From the NCBI GenBank assembly GCA_040754625.1, contig JBFMCF010000096.1:1651-65650 (forward strand): DNA of 64,000 bases. Reading direction: 5' to 3'. The DNA comes from a bacterium. Its GTDB lineage: Bacteria > JACRDZ01 > JAQUKH01. How positions within the stretch are numbered: the stretch's first letter is position 1; every line of letters starts with the position of its first letter. The notes under the pieces were generated by a model, which did no database searches, was not told the origin of the DNA, and saw nothing but the letters and a program-made list of their open reading frames with translations. Made by a program: the position numbers and the translations under genes. Positions 1-11,865 of this stretch are shown here, piece after piece.

Positions 1-11
1 TGAAGCCCTGT

Positions 12-287
12 TTATACGGCTCCAGCTAATTTGAATTTATTAAAATCCTCAAACACCCAATCGTTTTTCAGGGTGCGGTAAATTATTGTGAGAAATTTTC
101 TCGCCGCAGCGATGATCGCTTTGCCACTGCCTTTTCTTGCTTTTATCTTAAAGTAAAATTTCCTCAAATATGGATTGTATTTTATCGCTATCAGATAAGA
201 AGCCAGTTTTTTGTCGTCCTTGAAATCATTCACATTACCAATGGTATTCAAAAGAATCGTTGCCGATATGTCTCCGATTCCTGTCAT
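12..287 (-). pseudogene. IS110-family transposase C-terminal fragment (Transposase_20-like); degenerate remnant
   Basis: The 91-aa ORF has GIGDISAT...NDFKDDKKLASY and NPYLRKFYFKIKARKGSGKAIIAAARKFL, which resemble the conserved C-terminal region of IS110 (DEDD) transposases. The middle section looks deleted and there is no N-terminal catalytic domain. Confidence 0.4.
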
Positions 288-319
288 CGATGTCAGATTC
301 TCCTTTCTATTTTGAACAA

Positions 320-583
320 TTAAGTGGTCGGGTTTGTCAAGACCAATTCTCTGCCACAGTTAAGATGGAAAACGTTTGTCATTAAAGGCCGGCCTTTTTG
401 GCCTTCAATGTTGCCCTGGGAATAAACCTGCCAAGGTGTCCTGTTATCAAGAGACTGATGAAACCTTTCCTTGTTGTAAAACTCGAAATATTCCGTTAAT
501 CCAAGTCTGGCTTCCGGGATCGTCCGATAGTCCCGCAGATACACATTTTCGTATTTAACCGTCCGCCAGAGCCGCTCAATCAC
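320..583 (-). pseudogene. IS3-family OrfB (rve integrase core) C-terminal fragment
   Basis: ERLWRTVKYENVYLRDYRTIPEARLGLTEYFEFYNKERFHQSLDNRTPWQVY matches the C-terminal end of IS3-type DDE transposases (ERFNRTLK...YN.ERPH.SL...TP). The upstream catalytic part is absent. Confidence 0.55.
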
Positions 584-848
584 CTCTTTTACTATTGACC
601 TTTTGAACCAAATCCAAAATATATTTTTGTATCATACCTCCCCCCAAGCAATTTGTCAAGAAAAATTTTAGACTTGTCAACCCAATTTAGAAATGTCCGG
701 TTTTTACTGTTTTTTGTTTTTCTCTTTTCTTTTCAAATTTTAGATAGATAATCATATTTGTGGAGAGTGTGGGTAACTGCGGAGCGGTTATCCAAGTGAT
801 GGGGATAACATCTTTTCGTTATCCCCAGAACGGCACTATCCACAAATA

Positions 849-2159
849 TCAAGCGGCTTTCTTTTCTTTCTCAAACATCGCATTTATTGTTCGCCGCCAT
901 GAATAATCAACCGGCATTTTAAGCTGCTGGACAATTTTCTTTTCAGGCTTTACCCGTTGTTTGACTTTTACCGCTTCTTTTTTTACAGGAAAAATCTCTT
1001 TGTATCTCAGTCTTTTCCCTTTACTTGTTATCGAAACTGAACCGTCCACGCGCTCATTTACCGTGACTTTTCTGGCAGGGATACAATCCAGTATCTGATA
1101 GAATTTTTTGTCGTGATTTACTGTGAAGTCATTCCTGACTGCTCTTTCTGTTTTTACGCAAAGAATATCGTCTAAATTGAAACCTTTGGGTATATTACGA
1201 TGTAAATCTGTCTCTTTTTCAGCTTCTACCGAGAATTTTTTGTTGAATTTAGGCATATATTTTCTTAAGAATTCGTTCGCTTCTTCCATTGAACTTATAT
1301 TTTCCAGTCGCATTTCTTTTATCAACCGATCCTGCAGGGTATTAAATAACCTTTCCACTCTTCCTTTTGCCTGCGGGCTGTTTGCGTGTATCACTTTTAT
1401 CTCGAGTCCCTTCAATGCCCGTTCATACTGGCTTAACAGCGCCTGTTTACCCGCCAATTCATCTTCTATGCTTAATTTCCCGGTCGATTTATACGTTGAA
1501 TGCCTGTCTAAATAAACGCTGCGGGGAATCCCGTACCGCTTTATATATCTTTTCATTAAGTCCATCGCTGGTATCGTTCCTTCGTATTCATAAAATCTGC
1601 AAAATATTTCTCCCTTTGCGTCGTCTATAAAGGCCATCAATACCATCTTTGGCCCTCTGCCTTCAAGCCAATCATGATGAGATCCATCCATCTGTATCAT
1701 CTCCCCAAAATATTCTTTCCGTTCCCTCCATTGCCTGTGTTTCCTGCCTTTTCGACGCCCTTTGTATTCTATACCTTCTTTTACAAACCATTTTCTAAGG
1801 GTTTCATCGCTTATTTTTATTTCATCTCTTTCACTTAGTTTTTCCATGCATAACGTCGGCCCAAAACCAACATATTTTTCTCTGCATTTATCAAGTATCT
1901 TTCCTCTCCATTCCCTCGAAAATTCCCTGTTTGACTCTCTGCCCCGTGATTTATGTATTAAACCTTTTTCCCCTTCTTCTTTTACCCTTTGCACTAATCT
2001 TCTTATCTGACGATCGCTTATTTCTATCTTTCCTGCCGCTTCTTTTTGGGTTAGATGTTTTTTCATTACCTCATGTATTATCTTGACCCGTTTTAACTCT
2101 TTTTGGCTCATTATGATATTGTCCTTTCCTGCCATCAATGTCCTCCTTCCTGGAGGCAT
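849..2159 (-). mobile_element. DDE transposase with N-terminal HTH and rve integrase core (IS481/ISNCY-like), apparently intact
   Basis: 436 aa. The N-terminal HTH is KKHLTQKEAAGKIEISDRQIRRLVQRVKEEG. The DDE core has QMDGSHHDW...YLDRHSTY...QAKGRVERLFNTLQDRL. Structured inverted repeats lie just downstream of the stop (756-847), and near-identical 15-20-bp direct motifs (aaaaattttagactt) lie at about 661 and about 2202. Confidence 0.7.
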
Positions 2160-2293
2160 TTTAGCACCTTCTTATTAGGACATTATCATATTGGTATTAC
2201 AGAAAAATTTTAGACTTTGCCAAACTCTTAGTTGTATCCATTTTTTTTGGGGGGGCCCTGACTCGTCAGTAATTTAACCGTCAATTGGAATGG

Positions 2294-3631
2294 CTAATTA
2301 TAAGTTTCTGAGTTTTTGGTAAGCTTACTATTTACAAGAAGTATAATGTATAATCCAAGTCCATTTAGAAACATGTATCTCGCCAAAAATACGCTAAAGA
2401 GATATGACGTTACTATAAAAACTATTGATGTAATGAATACAACAGACGCAAGCCGTGAGTTTTGTCGTGAAAGAAGTCTATAGAAAAATGCATGCACTAC
2501 CAGTCCAAAACAAAAGATAAATATAAAAGACCCAAGCCCTCCGAAATCATATATTAAGCCGCGAAAAATTGTAAAAATATTCGTTTCAAATACATTATCA
2601 AAGTGGCCCGTTTCCATATATATTCCGGGCGAGAAGACCCTGGTAATTCCAAACGTGTTAAAGATAGACGCAAATGTGTAATATCCAAACGAGTTGAAAT
2701 CGTCCAAAAAAGTAGAAACCGATTCCATCCCAACATAAAACGAAAAGAAATCTGAAAAAGCATATATTTCCCCGAGCGTGTATGAAGTTATCGCAAATCT
2801 TAACAGACCAATGGTTCTACTCAAATTACCGGAATCAAAATACCCCTCTCGAGAAATAAATGATATCAATACAAGCGGGAGTAATAAAAATATAATACCG
2901 ATACTTTTCGGCATATAGGAAATTTTAAACAAATTAGTCTTGCCAGCATATATTTTCATTAAAAGAATTGATGCCAAATATAATGAGCTGGCAACAAACA
3001 AAACAAGTTTTGATGATTGTGTAACCATGATGTACAAAGCCGGAGTCAATGAAAGAGCAAGAAAAACCATTTTCCATGAGCGTGTTTTTTGAGAATAAGA
3101 AACAAAACCACCAAGGACTGGTGCTATATAGGTAAAAAACACACTTAAAGTACCTATGATTCCATACTCTAAACCCTTAGTTCCACGCATCGCAGCGAAG
3201 CGACCACTCGTAGCGATGGGATCAAAAAATATTGATTTAAGGTCATACCCGTTCAGAACCATACTGTAAGTTGAAAACACAATCGATAACACAATAGAAA
3301 TATATAAACAGCAGCGAATAAATTTACTGTCCAGTTGAGGTTCACATACAGATTTTTTAGTTTCATTCGCCTTGAATGCGTTCGACCAATTGAATGGTAA
3401 TGCGCTCAGCGAAAATGCCAACGTGCAGAGAAATATATATAAAATAGAAAATGGATTAATAGGTACATTAAATAATATAACTAATGGGAAAAATGTATAT
3501 ACGAACCATGCAAGTGAAAATATAGCGGCAGGGATAATGTACGTACCAACAGCAAGCCTTATAACAAATGCCTGCACAAGCATCATTACGCTGAATACTA
3601 TAGCCAACAGTTTATACTCAAATCCATACAT
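2294..3631 (-). CDS. Polytopic membrane protein, putative oligosaccharide repeat-unit polymerase (Wzy-like)
   Basis: 445 aa, more than 10 predicted hydrophobic spans, no catalytic soluble domains. It is the last gene of the polysaccharide array. Confidence 0.4.
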   Translation of the reverse strand: MYGFEYKLLAIVFSVMMLVQAFVIRLAVGTYIIPAAIFSLAWFVYTFFPLVILFNVPINPFSILYIFLCTLAFSLSALPFNWSNAFKANETKKSVCEPQLDSKFIRCCLYISIVLSIVFSTYSMVLNGYDLKSIFFDPIATSGRFAAMRGTKGLEYGIIGTLSVFFTYIAPVLGGFVSYSQKTRSWKMVFLALSLTPALYIMVTQSSKLVLFVASSLYLASILLMKIYAGKTNLFKISYMPKSIGIIFLLLPLVLISFISREGYFDSGNLSRTIGLLRFAITSYTLGEIYAFSDFFSFYVGMESVSTFLDDFNSFGYYTFASIFNTFGITRVFSPGIYMETGHFDNVFETNIFTIFRGLIYDFGGLGSFIFIFCFGLVVHAFFYRLLSRQNSRLASVVFITSIVFIVTSYLFSVFLARYMFLNGLGLYIILLVNSKLTKNSETYN

Positions 3632-3663
3632 GTTGATTTACCTATCACTAACCGCGATTGTTA

Positions 3664-3797
3664 TATTTCCACAAATCCCGATTTTGCCTGTAACTGGACA
3701 AATAAACCAGGAGCCTTGAAAAATTATAGAACCTGTTTGGGCCAATCAAACGCAAAACGACCCGCATTACCGAGTATATAATTTTAAATTTATTTTC
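3664..3797. repeat. About 135-bp direct repeat, copy 1 (flanks the TA insertion)
   Basis: About 90% identical to 4553..4693 (tatttccacaaatcccgatt[t/c]tgcctgtaactgga[c/t]aaataaacca...cgcattaccgagtatataattttaaattt). Confidence 0.85.
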
Positions 3798-3851
3798 TCC
3801 CGTTTCGCAAGCTGGTTGTTATCCCCCAAATTTACAATCCTTATACTTAAT

Positions 3852-4142
3852 TTACGCCGCCTTAAAACTAATAACCACTTCTTTCCCTAAAGCATGCGCG
3901 ATTTTATGCAATAATTTCAACGAAGGCACCCTTGTATCCGTGCCTTTTTCTAATCTGGCAATTACCGGCTGGCTGGTCCTGGCTTTTTGGGCAAGTTCTT
4001 TTTGGGTTATACCCTCTTTCTGCCTGATTTTCATAACAGCTTTTGCGATTCTATTTTTTATCAATTCGTCTTCGTAATAAATTCTGAATTCTTCATCTTT
4101 TATTTTTTCTTTAATTACGTCATCCAATAAAAGCGTTTTCAT
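3852..4142 (-). CDS. HTH XRE-family antitoxin (HigA-like)
   Basis: 96 aa; GITQKELAQKARTSQPVIARLEKG is a helix-turn-helix. It overlaps the upstream toxin gene by 23 bp, a toxin-first order as in HigBA. Confidence 0.6.
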   Translation of the reverse strand: MKTLLLDDVIKEKIKDEEFRIYYEDELIKNRIAKAVMKIRQKEGITQKELAQKARTSQPVIARLEKGTDTRVPSLKLLHKIAHALGKEVVISFKAA

Positions 4143-4473
4143 TTTTTAATACCTCCATTAAGCGTTTTGCCGCTACTTTTATTTCTTTATCCGGCGCCTT
4201 TTGCGATTGTTTTTTGTAAGAATGCAGCAAAACCATTATATTCTTTTTAATTGTTACATAAAATATTCTATATCCTCCGCCAATACTTCTTATTTTTATT
4301 TCCCAAAGTTTACCATCTATTTGTCGGAATTGAACTCTCGGAGATTCAAGTCCCAATTCCTGTATATTTTCCAAACACCCTAATATTTTTGCCTGATCAG
4401 TTTTTTCTAAACTATTAATAAATTCTAAAACAGGAGATTTCCCATTTGCACTTAAGAAAAATTTTATTTTCAT
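4120..4473 (-). CDS. Type II toxin, RelE/ParE superfamily (HigB/Gp49-like mRNA interferase)
   Basis: 117 aa. Size, the LWEIKIRSIGGGYRIFYV motif and pairing with the downstream XRE antitoxin fit RelE/HigB-family toxins. Confidence 0.5.
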   Translation of the reverse strand: MKIKFFLSANGKSPVLEFINSLEKTDQAKILGCLENIQELGLESPRVQFRQIDGKLWEIKIRSIGGGYRIFYVTIKKNIMVLLHSYKKQSQKAPDKEIKVAAKRLMEVLKNENAFIG

Positions 4474-4548
4474 ATCTTCTATTTTTTCTATATATTATAC
4501 CCATTTGGATATATTTGCAACTCTTATTTTAAAACACATGCAAAATAT

Positions 4549-5778
4549 TTAGTATTTCCACAAATCCCGATTCTGCCTGTAACTGGATAAATAAACCAGA
4601 AGCCTCGAAAAATCATAGAACCTGTTGGGGCCGATCAAACGCAAAATTGTCCGCATTACCGAGTATATAATTTTAAATTTAAATTTATTTTCTGATATCT
4701 TGGAATAGCCGCTTGGTTTATACGCAGATGAATGGCCTTTCTTTTCAAACAGGAAATTCTTCCTCGCGAAGCTGCCGACAACGCCGTTTGAGTCGAACGG
4801 ATCGTGGCCGGGAGGCAGTTCTTTTAAAATACACGCGTAAGCGCGGCGAAGCGTCGGGGATATATATTCCCCGCCGGACATATAATCAAACCCGTATTTT
4901 ATCGATTCCGCTCCTGTTTTTTTCGCGGAAAGCTTTTCCCCGTAGGCAGTGCCCAATTCTAAAAGGTCCGGCCGTTTTACATTTTTTTCGTATAAGGACC
5001 TTTTATTCAAATATTCCGGATCCGCGCCGTCAAAATTACTGAAGTGAAAAAAAATGAGAGGATAAATTTTATTTACAAGATAACGGCCTTCACTATCCTT
5101 TGTTATAAACCTCTCATATGAATTCCACGCGGCAGTATTATAACCTAAATTAAATGAAATATATATATCCTTGAATAAACAAGGCGCGATAGTAACCCAC
5201 TTCTGGTCCGTGGACAACCCGAATTGGGACTCCATAAAACTGAACTGCAGGCACCTGTTAGACCACCACTTTAAAAAAGATACTCCTTCCAGGGAATTTT
5301 TTACCGCGTAAAAACCCAGGTTAAACGAACCAAATCTCATCATAGCCATATCGCTTTCTGAAAAATTGTCGGATTGAGGTGTTGTATAGTGAGGGGTTAA
5401 GACTACTGAATGACCGTCTAAATCACATAAAACAGGTTCAACTGAATCATATAAACATGTATCAGCATCTAAAAATATTACCTTTTTAAATCTTTCAAAT
5501 AATTTTAAGGTAAGATACGGCTTAAGGCTGGTACTCAATTCTATGATATCATATTTAAACGCCAGCTCATAAAAGTCCGGAATGCCGACATCTTCAATCC
5601 AGACTATATTGGCTTCAACAGCAGAAAGATCAATAGTTGCCTTCTTATCAATAAGATATATTATTAACTTTATATTATTAAATTTTAATACCGATTCAGC
5701 AAGCACAAGCGCTTTAGGCATATAAGCTAAATTACAAACTGTAAAAATCGCATATTCCTGTTTTTTATCCGGAATCAC
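4549..5778 (-). CDS. Putative glycosyltransferase (GT-A-like, DxD motif)
   Basis: 409 aa, soluble, with the acidic motif FLDADTCLYDS. It lies in the glycosyltransferase block of the locus. Confidence 0.35.
   Translation of the reverse strand: MIPDKKQEYAIFTVCNLAYMPKALVLAESVLKFNNIKLIIYLIDKKATIDLSAVEANIVWIEDVGIPDFYELAFKYDIIELSTSLKPYLTLKLFERFKKVIFLDADTCLYDSVEPVLCDLDGHSVVLTPHYTTPQSDNFSESDMAMMRFGSFNLGFYAVKNSLEGVSFLKWWSNRCLQFSFMESQFGLSTDQKWVTIAPCLFKDIYISFNLGYNTAAWNSYERFITKDSEGRYLVNKIYPLIFFHFSNFDGADPEYLNKRSLYEKNVKRPDLLELGTAYGEKLSAKKTGAESIKYGFDYMSGGEYISPTLRRAYACILKELPPGHDPFDSNGVVGSFARKNFLFEKKGHSSAYKPSGYSKISENKFKFKIIYSVMRTILRLIGPNRFYDFSRLLVYLSSYRQNRDLWKY
4553..4693. repeat. About 135-bp direct repeat, copy 2 (overlaps the 3' end of the glycosyltransferase gene 4549..5778)
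   Basis: Near-identical to 3664..3797; contains an extra aaattt duplication. Confidence 0.85.
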
Positions 5779-6608
5779 TTTAATATCCTTTTTTTGGGCC
5801 CAAAAACATTAATTACCCTGACCAAAATTTGCCAGTAAATATACCCCGCGAATGAACGAATAACCGCGTAAGAGAATAAGATGTTCCCGCTTTTAATTGA
5901 GGCAAACAGCAATCTTATGCTTGCAAACGTGGTATCAAAAATCCGGTTAAAAGAATACTCGCGTAACAGCCTTTCCTTTCCAAAGATGACATACTTAGCA
6001 TCAGGCTGTTCCGACTCATGGTCAAAACCCGGAGTTTTTGAACACTCGCCGATCCTTAAATTATTATTATTTGATCGAAGGCAAAATTCATAATCCACGC
6101 AATCAACAAAATATTTTTCATTATGCCAGTTTATTCTTTTTAGGTTTTCGAGAAAAAATAAACTCCCGCTGCTTCTTGCCAGCAAAACATCTTTAAACAT
6201 AAATCTGTTCCCGGTAACTAAATCCCCATTTTTTTGTGTACCAAACACAATCGCGCTGTAACCGGATATTAAATTGGTGTTGTTAATATAAAAATCTTCA
6301 ACAAAATCCAAAGTATTACAATCAAATACCGTGTCCTGATCAAAAAATATTAAAGCAGGATATGAATCATAATACGCCTGGGCGCAAACAGATGAAATTC
6401 CAAAACCTAAACCCGCGTTTTTCCCACAAGTAATATATTTGGGAGTATTCGCATTGAATTTCCGGCAAAATTGCCTTATCAATTCATCTTCCGGGCTGTT
6501 ATCAAAAATATATATTGAAAACCCTGATGTTATCGCGCTTTGTAATCTGAGCGTCAGGTCTATATTTGGTTTGTAAGTAACCATTCCTATCGCAATTTTT
6601 CTATTCAC
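5775..6608 (-). CDS. GT2-family glycosyltransferase (WbbL-like rhamnosyltransferase type)
   Basis: IAIGMVTYKPNIDLTLRL...IFDNSPED...FFDQDT is the typical GT2 N-terminal signature. 4-bp overlap with the downstream gene. Confidence 0.55.
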   Translation of the reverse strand: MNRKIAIGMVTYKPNIDLTLRLQSAITSGFSIYIFDNSPEDELIRQFCRKFNANTPKYITCGKNAGLGFGISSVCAQAYYDSYPALIFFDQDTVFDCNTLDFVEDFYINNTNLISGYSAIVFGTQKNGDLVTGNRFMFKDVLLARSSGSLFFLENLKRINWHNEKYFVDCVDYEFCLRSNNNNLRIGECSKTPGFDHESEQPDAKYVIFGKERLLREYSFNRIFDTTFASIRLLFASIKSGNILFSYAVIRSFAGYIYWQILVRVINVFGPKKRILK

Positions 6609-6624
6609 TCTTATTCCCTTTAAA

Positions 6625-7896
6625 TTACAGTGACGTATATTTTTTCGCGTACATAAGTAAAATCATCAAATCGGCACCGGCCCTTATAACCCAGATGACC
6701 GCGGCTCCCGGCAATCCAAAATACTTTAAAAACATAAATAAAAGGGGAAAATAAAATACAAATTCTCCTAAATGTAAAATTGTGGTCATCTTGGCATTTC
6801 CTGCCGCTTGAACCGCGGCATAGGGGATTTGAGCTATGCCATTAAAAAATAATCCAACCGACAGAATAGAGGCAATTTTCCAGGAGTGTTGAGAAAAATC
6901 CCTTCCTAACCAAAGTGTTAAACCCCAATATGACCCGACAGCAATACTCAGGCATATCGCAAACATAGTAAGAGATGTTATTTTCAGGCTCTTTTTATAT
7001 ACGTTCTCAGCTCCCCTTTGATCCGCGCTCATCATAGAAGAAAGCCTTGGAAACAAAGCCGCTGCCAACGCACCGGGAATAATCAGAATACGAATTAAAA
7101 AATCAGAAGGCACAGTGTAATACGCGATTAAACCGGCACCTATCACGGATGAAATAATAAACCTGTCTGCCACCACCATTAAAGGGCTTACAATATTAGA
7201 CAAAGTCATCCAGGCACCAAATGAAAGCAGGTTGGATATCTCTTTCTCACTGCACTTTACCTTAATCCAGTTTATAGGCAACTTTTTATGCACTAAACAT
7301 ATATGCGCGCCTAATATCATAAACCTGGCTGCGATTAAACTGAACACTATCATATTAAGCGATGGTCCAAAAGCCATAACGCTTAAGACAGGTAACCCGA
7401 AATTAGCAAGCCCGAATAACAACCGCAGCAGATTAACTGTTTTAAAGTCTTCGAATGCTTCCAATACGCCTTTTAGCCCTGTTGTGAGAGTAACCATCGG
7501 GATACCAAATGCCACGATCAACAGGGAGTCAACTGTGTTTTGCTGCAGCGCCGCGCTGACATTCAGCCACTTAAAACCAAGCGGATTTGCCGCAACTGCT
7601 AATAAAACACCCCCAAAAGCCCCAGTAACTAACGTAAACAGCATCCCTGTCTTAACTAAACCAGATAATTTCTCAATTTGTTCTAACGCGCGATTAGCCG
7701 CGACTTGTTGAGTAAGCGCGCGGCCAAGCCCGAAATCAAAGAGGCTAAAATATCCAATTAAAGTCCATACAAGCGTAAGAATGCCGAATGCCTCTACTCC
7801 AATTTTATTTAACAAATACGGGATAGTGACAACACCCAGCAGGAATGGAATACCAGCCCCTGATATATTCCACAGCGTATTACGTTTCAATGACAT
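6625..7896 (-). CDS. wzx: Wzx-type polysaccharide flippase (MOP superfamily)
   Basis: 423 aa, about 12 TM. The N-terminus LWNISGAGIPFLLGVVTIPYLLNKIGVEAFGILTLVWTLIGYFSLFDFGLGRALTQ is the classic Wzx/PST start. Confidence 0.7.
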   Translation of the reverse strand: MSLKRNTLWNISGAGIPFLLGVVTIPYLLNKIGVEAFGILTLVWTLIGYFSLFDFGLGRALTQQVAANRALEQIEKLSGLVKTGMLFTLVTGAFGGVLLAVAANPLGFKWLNVSAALQQNTVDSLLIVAFGIPMVTLTTGLKGVLEAFEDFKTVNLLRLLFGLANFGLPVLSVMAFGPSLNMIVFSLIAARFMILGAHICLVHKKLPINWIKVKCSEKEISNLLSFGAWMTLSNIVSPLMVVADRFIISSVIGAGLIAYYTVPSDFLIRILIIPGALAAALFPRLSSMMSADQRGAENVYKKSLKITSLTMFAICLSIAVGSYWGLTLWLGRDFSQHSWKIASILSVGLFFNGIAQIPYAAVQAAGNAKMTTILHLGEFVFYFPLLFMFLKYFGLPGAAVIWVIRAGADLMILLMYAKKYTSL

Positions 7897-8018
7897 TTAA
7901 ATGCTCTCAAAAGTGTGATAATGATTTACCTTAATAACGCGGAGATGTTAACATAAAAAGGCTATTTATGTCTATTTAAAAATTGAAGATTCTTCATAAA
8001 AAAAACATAATTAACTGA

Positions 8019-8119
8019 GCCATCGGGGATTTTTTTTATTTCCCGAAGGCTCACATTTGTTTTAGACCCTTCGTCGCTTTGCTCCTCAGGGTGAGTGGTC
8101 GAAACACACCGACCCCTCA
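8019..8119. repeat. MITE-like imperfect palindromic element, copy A (half element)
   Basis: About 85% identical over about 60 bp to the reverse complement of 39859..39920 (tgaggggtcgg.gtgtttcgaccactca.cctgagga..aa...gacgaagg.tctaaaa). It provides the last 11 codons and the stop of ORF 8086..9399. Confidence 0.6.
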
Positions 8120-9399
8120 TTTAATTCCTCTTGTTTTTTAACAATATTTTCAATAATAAATATTAAAGCGATATTAAACCATAAAAACATTGAAATTTTT
8201 TCGTTTTTATTATGGTTAGCAAAAAATATTGTAGTCTGTGAACAAAAAAAGTATCCAACCAAACTCAGCATTATGCCATCAAGTAAATTCTTTAGTTTAA
8301 TATCTTCTATTTTATTCCTCAACTCAAAACACTTTCTAAAAGAAATAACAATAATTATCAAAAAACTAACCAGGCCAATTATTCCGTTTTCCGGAGCGAT
8401 ATGCAAAAATATATTATGCGCGTGCCAGCCGCGCGGCCATTCTTCTTTCACCTCAACTCCTTTATACTTCTGAACAACAACATCATATGTGCCCGGTCCT
8501 GTTCCAAAAAATGGAAAATCTTTAATCATTTTTAAAGAGCTTCCCCATGTAGGGAGCCTGTCTCCAATACTGTCTTGTTTAAAATTTGCAATAGATATAA
8601 TTCTCGTTTTAATACTCGCGGGTAATATTAAATATAATAATACGACAGTCAATAAAATTAAAAGGAAAAATTTCCAATTTTTTAACACCCTGTTGTTAAG
8701 AATAATTAAAAATAAAAAAACGCCCGTAAAACCTATCCAGCTGCCGCGGGAATAACTAATTATTAAACCCATAATTAAAATAATTAATCCCAGTATAAAA
8801 AAAATCGAGGCGGCTGTTTTTTTACGGTAATTCATAAGAAAACTGATTAAAATAGGTATCAGGAGCACTGTCACGGCCCCAAATTCAGCACGGCCGCCAA
8901 AACTATAATAATTACGATTCCAGTAACTTAATTGCATTTTTATATGGTGATAAATACCACGGCTGACTGAATAAAGAACAGCTATTATTAAAATAAACAG
9001 TATTGCCTCCAGTTTGTTTTTATTATCAATATTATTTATTAATAAATAAGCCATGCCTATGTGAAGAAGAAAATCCCGAAAATATAAAAAACTGACCTTT
9101 GGCTGGGAAGAAAAAATTGAGGCGGATATAAATGTTATTAAATAAATTAAGACAGGAAAATCTAAATCGGTCTTTTGAAATTTAATTTCTTTATCAATAG
9201 CTTTTCTAATAAACCAGAATAATATTGCGGCAACTAAAATATTTTTCAAACTATGAAGGCTTATCATTTTACTGCCGACAGCAAAATCAAAGCCAATCCC
9301 GCCCATTACACTTATAAGCAATATGATTAAACTTAAAACCAAAATATCAAGAAATGTTTTAAAATTAATTGAAGGCATCATCATTAAAATACCCAACAA
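8086..9399 (-). CDS. O-antigen ligase/polymerase family membrane protein (Wzy_C domain), paralog A
   Basis: 437 aa polytopic. SRGSWIGF motif in a large periplasmic loop; G..PGT..D; WHAHNIFL. Close paralog of 14582..15853. Confidence 0.6.
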   Translation of the reverse strand: MLGILMMMPSINFKTFLDILVLSLIILLISVMGGIGFDFAVGSKMISLHSLKNILVAAILFWFIRKAIDKEIKFQKTDLDFPVLIYLITFISASIFSSQPKVSFLYFRDFLLHIGMAYLLINNIDNKNKLEAILFILIIAVLYSVSRGIYHHIKMQLSYWNRNYYSFGGRAEFGAVTVLLIPILISFLMNYRKKTAASIFFILGLIILIMGLIISYSRGSWIGFTGVFLFLIILNNRVLKNWKFFLLILLTVVLLYLILPASIKTRIISIANFKQDSIGDRLPTWGSSLKMIKDFPFFGTGPGTYDVVVQKYKGVEVKEEWPRGWHAHNIFLHIAPENGIIGLVSFLIIIVISFRKCFELRNKIEDIKLKNLLDGIMLSLVGYFFCSQTTIFFANHNKNEKISMFLWFNIALIFIIENIVKKQEELNEGSVCFDHSP

Positions 9400-9402
9400 A
9401 TT

Positions 9403-10182
9403 CTATCTACCCGGTTTTGTCTTTTCCCAATTTTCAGCCAAAAGAGCATAAGATATGCCGGCCATTAATGCCACAAAACACGAAAATACAATTATTGGTA
9501 CTTTTTTTGGAGAAACCGGATATTTTGATTTAACAGGGCCGTCAATTAATTTAAACTCTTTATTAACAACTAATTGTGTTTCCAATTGAAATTTTTGAAA
9601 TAACAAGTCTCTAATCTGCACCTTATCATCGGGATAAGCCAGGGGCGATACATTTTCCCTTTTAGCTAACGCGTTTTTATCCGCGCTAAGTTTGGTTTTT
9701 TCAATCAGGTTTTCAACTTGATAAATCTGATTTCTTATTAAATCAGTTTGTCTATTATAATTTGAATTCCCATATTCAATATAAACACTGACTATTTCCT
9801 TGCATAAAGAATATGCAATATCATTATCTTTTAACCTGACCTTTAACATAAATAAATTACTTTCTTTAATATTTTCTAATAAAATCATTTTTTTTATTTC
9901 ATGTTCTTGTGGAATTCTTAAGCCTATTTTTTCAAAAATCGGATTTAAAAAAAGTCCCGACCTTATTAGTGTTGACGCTTCCGGATAAGTTATAATCGGC
10001 ACATTTATATAACCATTTTGTATAGTTGCTTTTACCTCATAAGTTTTGGGAATAATAAATATTATAATACTCGCTAAAACCATTGCAACAAGAGCTGTAC
10101 TTAAAATAAAAGTTTTTCGTTTATTAATAATCTGAATAAAATCTATAAGGCCGATTTCTTCATTATATTTTGGATTTAACAT
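9403..10182 (-). CDS. Wzz-like chain-length determinant (polysaccharide co-polymerase, short form)
   Basis: 259 aa with an N-terminal TM (FILSTALVAMVLASIIIFIIP), a coiled-coil periplasmic segment and a C-terminal TM (VPIIVFSCFVALMAGISYALL). Confidence 0.5.
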   Translation of the reverse strand: MLNPKYNEEIGLIDFIQIINKRKTFILSTALVAMVLASIIIFIIPKTYEVKATIQNGYINVPIITYPEASTLIRSGLFLNPIFEKIGLRIPQEHEIKKMILLENIKESNLFMLKVRLKDNDIAYSLCKEIVSVYIEYGNSNYNRQTDLIRNQIYQVENLIEKTKLSADKNALAKRENVSPLAYPDDKVQIRDLLFQKFQLETQLVVNKEFKLIDGPVKSKYPVSPKKVPIIVFSCFVALMAGISYALLAENWEKTKPGR

Positions 10183-10259: not shown

Positions 10260-11324
10260 TTATTTACTTATATAATATTCGTAAGTCTTTTTGATTCCAT
10301 CCGACAAGCTAATTTCCGGTTTCCACCCTAAAGATTTAATTTTTGAACTATCAAGAAGTTTTCTTGGAATACCGTCAGGTTTTGAAAAATCAAATTTTAT
10401 TTCTCCGACAAAACCCACTATATCTTTTATCAACTTTGCTATATCTTTTATTTTTATTTCCTCACCGCTCCCGGTGTTAATAAATTCACCTATATTTTTA
10501 TATTCATAATTTTCCATCAAAAATAAACATGCATCAGCCATATCATCCACATATAAAAATTCCCTATAAGGTTCACCGCTGCCCCAAAGAGTAACATATT
10601 CCGGAGTTATACCCAGTTTTTCCAGGCTTAAATCATCAACGGCATCTGAATTCAGCCTGAAGTTAAACCCTATAGGATAAGTTTCTATGTCTTTTTTTAC
10701 CTCGTTATACTTTTTTTGGCTCAAAAGTTTTGCGAGATGAAACTTTCTTATCAAAGCCGCCGGGAGATGAGCTGTTTCTAAATTATAATTATCTCCCCGG
10801 CCATAAAGATTTGTAGGCATACCGGAAATAAAATTTGTCCCATATTGCTCATTGTAATATTGGCATAATTTTATCGCGGCTATTTTTGCTATCGCATACG
10901 GTTCATTAGTCGGTTCCAAAATCCCTATAAGGAGATGCTCTTCTTTCATCGGTTGAGGCGCGTTTCTTGGATAAATACAAGATGAACCAAGATTAAGAAG
11001 TTTTCCCACACCGTATTTATAAGCGGAATTTATAACATTGGCACCTATTATAATATTATCATATATAAACTCCGCTTTATATGTGCTGTTTGCAAGAATT
11101 CCGCCGACTTTTGCTGCTGCCAGGAACACATACTCGGGTTTTTCTTTTTCAAAAAAATCTTCAACTTCAGCCTGCTTTCTCAAATCAAGTTCTTTGCTTG
11201 TTTTGACAACTACATTTGTATATCCTGAGGCTTGAACTTTTCTTAGTAAAGCAGACCCTACTAATCCTTTATGTCCTGCGATATAAATTTTTGAACTTTT
11301 GTCCATCTGTTTACTTTTTCCCAT
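10260..11324 (-). CDS. fcl: GDP-L-fucose synthase (GDP-4-keto-6-deoxy-D-mannose 3,5-epimerase/4-reductase)
   Basis: KIYIAGHKGLVGSALLRKV...FLAAAKVGGI..N..YPA.F...N......N...A......KLL.LGSSCIYP: full Fcl/WcaG signature. Confidence 0.8.
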   Translation of the reverse strand: MGKSKQMDKSSKIYIAGHKGLVGSALLRKVQASGYTNVVVKTSKELDLRKQAEVEDFFEKEKPEYVFLAAAKVGGILANSTYKAEFIYDNIIIGANVINSAYKYGVGKLLNLGSSCIYPRNAPQPMKEEHLLIGILEPTNEPYAIAKIAAIKLCQYYNEQYGTNFISGMPTNLYGRGDNYNLETAHLPAALIRKFHLAKLLSQKKYNEVKKDIETYPIGFNFRLNSDAVDDLSLEKLGITPEYVTLWGSGEPYREFLYVDDMADACLFLMENYEYKNIGEFINTGSGEEIKIKDIAKLIKDIVGFVGEIKFDFSKPDGIPRKLLDSSKIKSLGWKPEISLSDGIKKTYEYYISK

Positions 11325-11865
11325 TTTTTTGCCGTTTTCTTACAGTGTGCTTAAATTTCAACACAGCAAAATTCAATTCGATAGTTGTCTCATTCTCGTT
11401 AGACACCAAACTATCATCCAGAATTTCGGCAATAATCCCGCCGCTTTTTTGAAGCAAGTTCTGTTTTTGGCTCTCGTCATGTACGTTTGATATCGCTTTA
11501 ATATTTCGTGTAAGGTTTCTAATTTTCGCGAATGTCTCAATAATGGCTATTGTCGTTTGGGCAGCTTGCTGACTCTTTAATATCGTTGCCAGCATATACA
11601 AGCCTTTTTCAGAAAAAGCTTTGGGCAAAACTCTTATCTTTGAAAATTTTGCGGTGGAAAATTTCCACCGCAAACCTTCAAACTCCGTTCTATTAAGCTC
11701 AAGAATATAACCATCAGGAAATTTGCCGGGATTATTTTTGACTGCTTTGTTTATATCCCTTGTTTCAACTCTATAAAGTTCTGCTATATCAGTATCAAGA
11801 ATAACTTTTTGGTTTCTCAATTCAAGTATTTTGCTTTCAATTTTTTCAAACGCAACTATATCCAT
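11311..11865 (-). CDS. ORF6N (KilA-N-like) domain protein, phage/mobile-element-associated DNA-binding protein
   Basis: 184 aa. N-terminal ILELRNQKVILDTDIAELYRVETRDINKAVKNNPGKFPDGY resembles the ORF6N domain of phage antirepressors. It overlaps the fcl start by 14 nt. Confidence 0.45.
   Translation of the reverse strand: MDIVAFEKIESKILELRNQKVILDTDIAELYRVETRDINKAVKNNPGKFPDGYILELNRTEFEGLRWKFSTAKFSKIRVLPKAFSEKGLYMLATILKSQQAAQTTIAIIETFAKIRNLTRNIKAISNVHDESQKQNLLQKSGGIIAEILDDSLVSNENETTIELNFAVLKFKHTVRKRQKNGKK

Follow-up and report, generated by a model that had tools for sequence, protein, structure and literature searches.

A probable recombination scar enclosing a HigBA-type toxin-antitoxin operon in the polysaccharide locus of an uncultured bacterium

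Background

Direct repeats on either side of a block of DNA are a hallmark of several described systems. Target-site duplications are short (about 2-14 bp), identical and situated beside the ends of an element or its transposase. In Campbell-type integration, a single crossover yields a merodiploid in which direct repeats of the homologous segment surround the inserted DNA. In chromosomal integrons, toxin-antitoxin (TA) cassettes typically have repeats of about 120 nt on either side. A proposal made for T6SS and Rhs arrays combines a homologous anchor with an illegitimate end, which leaves orphan 3' pieces of genes behind, and the effector-immunity arrays of the T6SS have been likened to integron cassette arrays (PMC5361080). 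On homology-facilitated illegitimate recombination (HFIR) and displacement scars, that paper cites Prudhomme 2002, de Vries and Wackernagel 2002 and Jackson 2009.

Here, we compare with these systems a polysaccharide locus in which a complete TA operon lies between two copies of the 3' end of a glycosyltransferase (GT) gene. Our analyses make it probable that recombination in a mosaic Wzx/Wzy-type polysaccharide locus left this arrangement as a scar, in which a common, self-contained HigBA-type TA operon was trapped. The arrangement is known from one metagenome-assembled contig.

The end of the glycosyltransferase gene is present twice

A repeat search of the window (the whole stretch of 64,000 nt that was analysed) detected direct repeats at 3664-3792 and 4553-4681, with 91% identity and a spacing of 889 nt. 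A MAFFT alignment carries the homology past a 6-nt indel (AAATTT) and thus extends the copies to 135 and 141 nt (Table 1), the identity being 91% when this single indel is left aside and the longest exact run common to both being 31 nt. The number of repeat copies expected by chance in the window is 0, and no third copy was recovered in it, either with a 35-nt probe for which 3 mismatches were allowed or by blastn of positions 1-4800 against the whole window. The two repeats bracket the complete TA operon, and the unit bounded by them contains no transposase or inverted repeat.

Table 1. Features of the distal part of the polysaccharide locus (positions in the window)
Feature	Position	Strand	Evidence
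IS fragments	12-583		rve_3 fragment at 320..583
ISNCY-family transposase, just past the polymerase gene	849..2159	-	NF033594, 410 bits (cut-off 250)
Oligosaccharide repeat-unit (O-antigen) polymerase, 445 aa	2294..3631	-	TIGR04370, 61 bits (cut-off 40)
Repeat copy 1, orphan GT tail of 45 codons	3664-3798; with extension, 3645..3798	-	Alignment; reading in the GT frame
Spacer of 53 nt, antitoxin stop to copy 1	3799..3851	-	No stable fold; homology to L018 ends at 3862
Antitoxin, 96 aa, XRE-type HTH (HTH_3/HTH_37)	3852..4142	-	HTH_3 49.8 bits, HTH_37 32.3 bits, both above cut-offs
Toxin, 117 aa, Gp49/HigB-like, RelE/ParE superfamily	4120..4473	-	PF05973, E=1.3e-20
Putative TA promoter/operator region	4474..4531	-	Homology to L018; read from sequence
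GT, 409 aa, nucleotide-diphospho-sugar transferase/GT8-like	4549..5778	-	ORF; weak PF03407 and PF01501 matches
Repeat copy 2, functional last 47 GT codons (...DLWKY, then TAA)	4553..4693	-	Repeat search; alignment

Both repeats correspond to the final approximately 45 codons of the GT gene, and their homology stops exactly at the last sense codon, with unrelated flanks on both sides. The C-terminus encoded by copy 2 agrees with the family consensus and with the homologue sequences read. Copy 1 lacks a 5' gene body but is still open in the GT frame; four further codons (NNRG) lead into three stops, TAG TGA at 3645-3650 and a third TAG at 3642-3644, which end 10 nt ahead of the polymerase ATG. 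For the 31 nt that precede this gene, no relatives were present among the fetched loci or elsewhere in the window.

The GT is the final gene of a conserved flippase-P277-GT module. It has 775 homologues, typically of 403-412 aa, many of which share contigs with polymerase homologues, and the polymerase is its usual downstream neighbour, the two genes being adjacent in at least 12 loci (L004, L016, L020, L022, L023, L029, L041, L044, L051-L053 and L064). In L023, positions 6088-7606 contain an uninterrupted GT-polymerase junction, to which copy 1 and the polymerase gene (3792..2301) together align with 71% identity; they also align to the corresponding junction of L016. Beyond the polymerase gene, the transposase and the IS fragments mark the distal end of the locus.

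These results bear on an earlier note on this DNA, which had described the direct repeats, set them apart from target-site duplications and suggested that the original gene junction was duplicated. The alignment bore out the repeats and their positions; at 135 and 141 nt and 91% identity, they are too long and too diverged for target-site duplications. The GT 3' end, and with it the gene junction, is indeed duplicated. The note had also taken copy 2 for the native C-terminus of the GT and copy 1 for a duplicate upstream of the Wzy-like gene. The former is correct on the GT side; on the polymerase side, however, the word native fits copy 1, because it is colinear with the polymerase in the uninterrupted loci L023 and L016. 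As for the latter, the GT 3' end is duplicated at that place, but copy 1 is not a fresh copy, as the divergence described below indicates.

A role of the tail as an expression signal for the polymerase gene, which could explain its retention, was considered and rejected, as loci with other inserts between the GT and the polymerase (L003, L017, L039, L040, L042/43 and L054) retain no tail. A pair of -35/-10-like elements at 3810..3781 straddles the junction, in a promoter/terminator scan that was at background level (18 sites against 14.7 expected). Copy 2 and its counterpart in L001, the nearest GT locus, have a dS of 0.70, which is not below the value of 0.65 for the whole gene, and thus no additional constraint at the DNA level is visible. 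An Rfam scan of positions 1-10000 gave no matches.

The toxin-antitoxin operon

The toxin scores 73.7 bits with PF05973 (cut-off 23.9) and resembles HigB of PDB 6af3 (E=3.9e-7) and RelE (about 1e-2); all of its 237 homologues belong to PF05973. TIGR02683 (NCBIfam) matches it below the cut-off of that model (32 versus 63 bits), and PADLOC returned weak, non-specific matches only for the TA pair. The toxin gene comes first and overlaps the antitoxin gene by 23 nt; an identical overlap is found in L018, an independent contig, and the layout is shared by L100-L107. Both ORFs are intact, and in comparison with L018, dN/dS is 0.12 for the toxin and 0.10 for the antitoxin. With a Gp49-type toxin above the cut-off and an adjoining XRE-HTH antitoxin, the description of the pair as a HigB/HigA-like TA cassette in the earlier note is upheld. 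Judged by its sequence, it is an ordinary HigBA-type type II pair, with predicted activities of growth arrest by ribosome-dependent mRNA cleavage for the toxin and of neutralisation for the antitoxin.

Upstream of the toxin gene, promoter-like elements can be read: a -35 element TTGCAA (4505-4510), a near-palindrome ATATCCAAATGGGTAT (4487-4502) and a -10 element TAATAT/TATAAT (4482-4489). In L018, the same place holds TTGACA and TATTAT, separated by 17 nt, together with a perfect palindrome, and a similar palindrome is present in L019. The putative promoter was absent from the list of the consensus scan because only 8 of its 12 positions match. Homology to L018 covers only 4531..3862 and the flanks are unrelated, which marks the TA operon as a discrete cargo with its own predicted promoter and operator. 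Its relatives adjoin IS21, a reverse-transcriptase gene and GmrSD-type genes, and they also occur on Legionella conjugative plasmids; the independent copies in L018, L019 and L100-L107 have no flanking repeat.

The DNA on either side of the operon is without relatives in the material compared. No relative was found for the 17 nt between the TA promoter region and the GT stop (4532-4548), and none among the fetched loci or in the rest of the window for the spacer 4520-4551. Likewise, the spacer between the antitoxin gene and copy 1 resembled neither the fetched loci nor other parts of the window.

The GT-polymerase junction in related loci

A search with the GT yielded 14 loci from several phyla among genome contigs and 80 loci among metagenome contigs, none of them with a TA operon. 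Within the approximately 80 homologous loci, the repeat sequence is ordinary GT coding DNA that is present once. A TA operon at the GT-polymerase junction was found in 0 of about 100 related loci, and the 80 metagenome loci contained no closer GT allele. No donor or recipient locus close enough to reveal the event was found: the nearest GT locus, L001, is 82% identical over the GT gene, in an alignment that ends 3 nt beyond the stop codon, and it has neither the TA operon nor the present type of polymerase.

Up to 28 nt beyond the GT stop, L023 and L026/L027 share 99% identity; their polymerase genes, which come next, are different, and behind these the identity is again high, at 96%. With this swap of polymerase genes, the GT stop represents a recurrent breakpoint. 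In other loci, the same slot is filled by IS elements and accessory genes.

A sensitive tblastn search for more orphan GT tails in related loci retrieved L007 only, a metagenome-assembled genome of Daejeonella. There, a full GT gene is followed by a gene of 282 aa and IS630, and then by an orphan GT tail. This tail shares 85% identity with the Mucilaginibacter allele in L004 but only 59% with the tail of the GT of L007 itself. Judging from these identities, L007 is a clear-cut second and independent case, in which the tail comes from a foreign allele.

Origin of the two copies

Between the two copies, the Nei-Gojobori method estimates 8 synonymous and 4 non-synonymous differences, which corresponds to a dN/dS of 0.11 and a dS of 0.38; these statistics are based on 12 differing sites in 42 codons only. 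The dN/dS falls within the range of true orthologue comparisons (0.07-0.12), and neutrality is contradicted by a binomial P of 0.0009. When L001 is used as the outgroup, 4 derived changes are assigned to copy 1 and 6 to copy 2, and thus the orphan copy has not evolved faster. As the copies differ mostly at synonymous sites, they appear to originate from two diverged functional GT alleles. We therefore have moderate confidence, given the 12 differing sites, that the orphan tail stems from a diverged allele and is not an in-place duplicate.

The most probable history of the locus, for which the ancestral order was flippase, P277, GT and polymerase, is that two diverged versions of it recombined. 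The first version would have contributed the intact GT gene followed by the TA operon, and the second the polymerase gene preceded by the final 135 nt of the GT gene belonging to that version. A homologous join in or upstream of the GT gene would have left no visible trace, while an illegitimate join (3799|3798) would have fused DNA 53 nt downstream of the antitoxin gene to codon -45 of the other GT allele. A linear fragment, as in HFIR, or a circularised fragment, through a Campbell-type crossover, would give an identical product. Neither the divergence to L001 nor the composition discriminated which side was incoming. In the present locus, the GT gene would be kept intact by copy 2 and copy 1 would be inert, the TA operon may be expressed from its own predicted autoregulated promoter, and the polymerase gene is presumably transcribed by read-through.

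An origin of the repeat by duplication in place appears improbable. Here, the TA operon would have been inserted at the end of the GT gene while the last 135 nt were copied, for example through replication slippage, template switching or repair of a staggered break, and the copies would later have diverged to 91%. It is consistent with such an event within one lineage that the copies are each other's closest relatives, with 90.5% identity between copy 1 and copy 2 in comparison with 88.1% and 86.5% to L001. However, the divergence is of the coding type, copy 1 shows no acceleration, and its neutral drift since an in-place duplication is disfavoured at P=0.018. In addition, the dS of 0.38 exceeds half of the distance to L001 (0.65), and a fragment of no use would have had to persist over that time free of indels and stop codons. 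The end of the repeat at the last sense codon would also be a coincidence, whereas it is expected for conserved coding DNA shared by two alleles.

It is quite unlikely that the arrangement is an assembly chimera of two co-occurring strains, one with GT followed by TA and the other with GT followed by polymerase. In favour of a chimera, the contig is metagenome-assembled, the similar run accessions behind L001, L017 and L018 (SRR2238xxxx) hint at related samples, and exact runs of up to 31 nt are common to both copies. Nevertheless, collapsed GT tails would link the GT directly to the polymerase and omit the TA operon, and such a collapse would not set the downstream spacer of the TA operon against the first base of the tail. 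Furthermore, the 3799|3798 junction has no partner with a shared k-mer in the window or the fetched loci, and an independent assembly, L007, exhibits the same kind of architecture.

The idea that the repeats are attC-like or att-like sites of a mobile circular TA cassette, invited by their integron-like length and by the parallel drawn in PMC5361080, has almost nothing to recommend it, as both repeats (single-strand fold z = +0.38 and +1.80) and both spacers fold no better than shuffled sequence, the repeats are ordinary GT coding sequence, the independent TA copies lack them, and the neighbouring genes include no site-specific integrase or recombinase by Pfam and NCBIfam, their rve matches being IS transposases only.

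A recombination scar between two versions of the locus accordingly remains our preferred explanation. The earlier note had proposed integration of a circular TA cassette by homologous (Campbell-type) or site-specific recombination; the homologous part is sustained, but the site-specific part is not. A circular cassette is possible yet unnecessary, because a linear fragment that is homologous at one end and joined illegitimately at the other yields the same product. The further suggestion of the note, that the cassette would stabilise the end of the locus, is speculative, and none of about 100 related loci has a TA operon at this junction.

Implications

The event is of a known kind, with no new mechanism and no new gene family. 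As a worked example, it illustrates the rebuilding of serotype-determining polysaccharide loci, with a conserved gene end as the recombination breakpoint, and it adds to the view of such loci as mosaics in uncultured bacteria. An imprecise event of this type would leave a dated scar, in which synonymous divergence records the two parental alleles and through which a selfish TA pair may hitch-hike into an operon. For annotation, an orphan tail should be labelled neither as a gene nor as a mobile-element repeat.

A bolder reading, which we regard as doubtful, is that the strongly conserved 3' end of the GT gene is a standing homology arm for swapping the downstream genes across distant phyla and that the trapped TA operon protects the new junction. 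If so, the alternative polymerases, methyltransferases and IS elements downstream of the GT would be the swapped cargo, and orphan GT tails would be the footprints of rarer, one-sided events that are able to capture selfish cargo. The TA operon would then protect the GT-polymerase junction because homologous recombination from tail to tail would delete it and cause post-segregational killing.

Comparison with known systems

The TA pair resembles described HigBA type II systems in its toxin domain, the toxin-first order with an overlap, the HTH_3/HTH_37 antitoxin, the near-palindrome between the putative -35 and -10 elements, the purifying selection on both genes and the presence of related pairs both in variable regions and on conjugative plasmids. 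It differs only in its position, between GT and polymerase inside a polysaccharide operon.

With regard to the repeats, the long, diverged copies are distinct from target-site duplications, and neither the hairpin repeats nor the nearby integrase of an integron cassette was found. Direct repeats of a homologous segment around inserted DNA are shared with Campbell-type integration, which would, however, require a circle already bearing the illegitimate TA/GT-tail junction; no evidence of a circular intermediate was found. Exchange of polymerases and flippases in O-antigen and capsule loci is mirrored by the near-identical loci L023 and L026/L027, which differ in the polymerase only and have their breakpoints just outside it. 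Those cassette exchanges are clean replacements, whereas the locus in the window and L007 keep a duplicated GT tail.

There is also a likeness to HFIR, in which foreign DNA is trapped at the edge of a homologous anchor, and to C-terminal displacement in Rhs, CDI and T6SS arrays. In both cases, a conserved upstream gene serves as the anchor, and new DNA added downstream of it displaces the former 3' end, which persists further downstream as an orphan of a different allele; as in a displaced-3'-end scar, an orphan 3' fragment here lies downstream of an intact GT copy with inserted DNA in between. A scar of this kind would be marked by microhomology of a few bases at its illegitimate junction and by a donor fragment homologous on one side only; no donor sequence was found. 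In Rhs, CDI and T6SS loci, however, the displaced piece is a variable toxin tip with its immunity gene, whereas here it is a conserved and functionless GT end; moreover, the cargo is a TA pair, and there is one scar with an inferred mechanism and no array.

Gene organization around the direct repeats

The existence of the feature is confirmed and its components could be assigned well: it is probably a scar left by recombination of two diverged alleles of a glycosyltransferase (GT) gene, which has trapped a common toxin-antitoxin (TA) module. A repeat search located the direct repeats at 3664-3792 and 4553-4681 (91% identity, spacing 889 nt), and alignment of the two copies extended the homology past one 6-nt indel (AAATTT) to 3798 and 4693, giving full lengths of 135 nt for copy 1 and 141 nt for copy 2. 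The repeats thus lie where the earlier note had placed them. That note had named a dispersed repeat unrelated to the TA pair as a ground for refutation; a 35-nt probe allowing as many as 3 mismatches and a comparison of window 1-4800 with the whole window by blastn recovered these two copies alone, and this reading was therefore rejected.

Each copy is a GT 3' end; the GT itself is the last gene of a module that also comprises a flippase and a 277-aa protein (P277). The GT homologues whose sequences were read end in LWK, one of Y, L, V or I, and a stop, a pattern that copy 2 shares, while copy 1 in the GT frame reads ENKFKIIYSVMRVVLRLIGPNRFYNFSRLLVYLSSYRQNRDLWKY without a stop, followed by NNRG and three stop codons. 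One edge of the copy-to-copy homology falls exactly at the last sense codon and the other at codon -45/-47. The spacers flanking the copies matched nothing that was compared.

Features around the TA pair, listed in the direction of transcription (all genes on the minus strand)
Feature	Position	Strand	Remark
Wzx-type flippase	7896..6625	-	
P277	6608..5775	-	277-aa protein
GT	5778..4549	-	409 aa; copy 2 is its last 47 codons
Spacer	4532-4548	-	17 nt, without relatives
TA promoter region (predicted)	4531..4474	-	
Toxin	4473..4120	-	Gp49/PF05973
Antitoxin	4142..3852	-	HTH_3/HTH_37; 23-nt overlap with toxin gene
Spacer	3799-3851	-	53 nt, without relatives
Copy 1, orphan GT tail	3798..3664	-	
NNRG codons and three stops	3662..3642	-	
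Oligosaccharide repeat-unit polymerase	3631..2294	-	TIGR04370
ISNCY transposase	2159..849	-	
IS fragments	12-583		

Nearly the whole window (2294-60589) is one unidirectional polysaccharide super-locus of ~58 kb, with a Poly_export/SLBB protein, two Wzx-type flippases, three polymerase/ligase-like genes, two asparagine-synthase-like genes and two radical-SAM genes; it may represent two or three fused glycan clusters. Its distal end (12-2293) is IS debris, consisting of the intact ISNCY-family transposase, an rve_3 integrase-core fragment (320..583) and a 91-aa fragment (12..287); a search for inverted repeats at the ends of the ISNCY element found none. Between an epimerase gene and the GDP-mannose dehydratase gene, a 184-aa ORF6N (KilA-N-like) gene (11311-11865, minus strand) matches the PADLOC candidate defence family PDC-S05 (E=1e-77) and is apparently a second foreign gene within the polysaccharide operon.

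Exchange at the GT-polymerase junction

Homologues of the GT and of this polymerase family share contigs, and the polymerase lies directly 3' of the GT in at least 12 fetched loci. In the related locus L023 (6088-7606) the GT 3' end runs without a break through the intergenic region into the polymerase, and this stretch aligned in one piece to window 3792..2301 (71%); a second locus, L016, aligned likewise to copy 1 and the polymerase, but in two pieces. Given this colinearity and the usual GT-polymerase pairing, copy 1 and the polymerase represent the old GT-polymerase junction. The empty-site arrangement, which the earlier note had proposed seeking in related genomes or metagenome reads, is the common state of the family; a TA pair occupied this position in 0 of ~100 related polysaccharide loci.

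The comparisons indicate that this junction is a recombination hot spot in the locus family. Several JGI metagenome contigs carry a polymerase swap: L023 and L026/L027 are 99% identical over 6.2 kb until 28 nt past the GT stop, beyond which L023 has a TIGR04370-type polymerase and L026/L027 a different 423-aa polymerase-like gene homologous to that of L001, and beyond the polymerase they are again 96% identical (L023 6243-7781 versus L026/L027 6245-7910; distal breakpoint ~170 nt after the polymerase stop). The flippase-P277-GT block of the window has its nearest relative in L001 (82% nucleotide identity), whose homology to the window stops 3 nt after the GT stop; a 280-aa gene follows there, with a polymerase of the other type. 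Depending on the locus, the slot is occupied by IS630 (L042/43) or by a homologous 280-283-aa gene (L001, L017), or it is empty.

One other locus, L007 from a Daejeonella MAG, contains an orphan GT tail. There, a full GT precedes a 282-aa gene in the same slot position, a degenerate IS630 and a GT tail of 40 codons plus a stop. The tail shares 85% nucleotide identity with the Mucilaginibacter allele (L004) and only 59% with L007's own GT tail, and by this measure is clearly a displaced resident allele. In the region L007 6497-6645, 32 nt lying directly upstream of the orphan tail resemble the 5' end of the L004 polymerase gene (81%), which suggests that a remnant was scrambled; 105 nt further on, the contig ends.

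On the other side of the module, compared with L001, the window has a cleanly inserted 1.5-kb segment (7899-9411) that carries a Wzy_C (O-antigen ligase/polymerase-like) gene (8086..9399); in L001 the end of a Wzz-like gene abuts the flippase gene (183|184). GT homologues in genome contigs (L002-L014, 48-69% identity), usually inside the flippase-P277-GT trio, occur in Actinomycetes, Bacteroidota, Burkholderiales, Steroidobacteraceae, Spirochaetales and Sulfurimonas, and the module is one that horizontal transfer has spread widely.

Origin of the two copies

Of the 42 codons compared, 10 distinguish the copies, at 12 sites in all: seven of these codons show a single synonymous third-position change and three show conservative replacements (Nei-Gojobori: 8 synonymous, 4 non-synonymous). 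The dN/dS and dS values, 0.11 and 0.38 between the copies, 0.10 and 0.53 for copy 1 versus L001, 0.07 and 0.70 for copy 2 versus L001, and 0.12 and 0.65 for the whole GT versus L001, place the copies in the substitution regime of real orthologue comparisons. Duplication in place with later divergence would explain why the copies are each other's nearest relatives, within a tight trio with L001 (90.5%, 88.1% and 86.5% nucleotide identity; all other alleles at most 75%). However, the substitutions are of the coding type (8/12 synonymous: P=0.0009 under neutrality, P=0.018 if copy 1 drifted freely after duplication with copy 2 constrained), copy 1, now a useless fragment, has not evolved faster than copy 2 (4 versus 6 derived changes, 2 ambiguous, with L001 as outgroup), and the repeat ends exactly at the last codon, making such a duplication improbable. 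With moderate confidence from these 12 sites, most of the divergence would have arisen while each copy still terminated a functional GT gene in a genome of its own, the two being united later.

An assembly chimera is very unlikely, as tails collapsed in the assembly graph would skip the TA pair rather than join the spacer downstream of it directly to the tail's first base, and the 3799|3798 junction shares no k-mer with anything else compared. A site-specific or attC-type cassette can practically be dismissed: the repeats are plain coding sequence and do not fold, a search near them for a site-specific integrase found none, and other TA copies lack these repeats.

The orphan tail is probably not functional, because loci with other GT-polymerase inserts keep no tail and its synonymous sites have diverged as much as those elsewhere in the gene. 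An Rfam scan of 1-10000 gave no match, and a -35/-10-like pair across the junction (3810..3781) scored no better than background.

The TA module

The toxin matches PF05973 (E=1.3e-20), the HigB structure 6af3 (E=3.9e-7) and structures of RelE, which, with the HTH_3/HTH_37 antitoxin, bears out the HigB/HigA-like assignment made earlier. The closest independent copy is on L018, a 966-bp Logan contig (85% protein identity), where homology is limited to window 4531 to 3862, beginning 58 nt before the toxin ATG and reaching the 3' end of the antitoxin gene, with unrelated flanks. Upstream of the toxin, L018 has TTGACA, 17 nt and TATTAT, with the perfect palindrome ATATATCCAAATGGATATAT in the spacer, and the window has TTGCAA, 17 nt and TAATAT, with ATATCCAAATGGGTAT; a similar palindrome occurs in L019. 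This stretch looks like an autoregulated promoter. Comparison with L018 revealed purifying selection on toxin and antitoxin (dN/dS 0.12 and 0.10). TA relatives adjoin IS21, a reverse-transcriptase gene and GmrSD/HNH genes, frequently where a contig ends, and are also carried by Legionella conjugative plasmids. By these comparisons the pair is an ordinary, mobile HigBA-type module, probably active.

Proposed mechanism

Under recombination between alleles, two related loci would have met, one with the TA pair directly downstream of its own GT. The simplest history would take a single homologous exchange, within the GT or upstream of it, plus a single illegitimate join at 3799|3798; the polymerase would now be transcribed by read-through. 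The analysis shows the structures and the pattern of substitutions, from which we infer the recombination event itself and its direction, TA activity and this read-through. Divergence to L001 and base composition did not discriminate whether GT-TA or tail-polymerase was the incoming side. The observed order could result from a linear fragment anchored on one side (homology-facilitated illegitimate recombination, HFIR) or from a circularised fragment and a single crossover, two routes that differ in topology only. Thus, the Campbell-type crossover of the earlier note does yield the observed order, while its site-specific alternative is disfavoured by the lack of repeat folding and of a nearby site-specific integrase. 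It is conceivable, though rather doubtful, that the conserved GT tail serves as a general homology arm for swapping downstream cassettes and that the TA pair guards the junction against tail-to-tail deletion.

Scar and TA module are known kinds of thing, and a special integration mechanism is not called for. HFIR has been put forward to explain orphaned 3' regions of T6SS/Rhs arrays (PMC5361080 and references therein), which the one-sided anchored fragment envisaged here would resemble.
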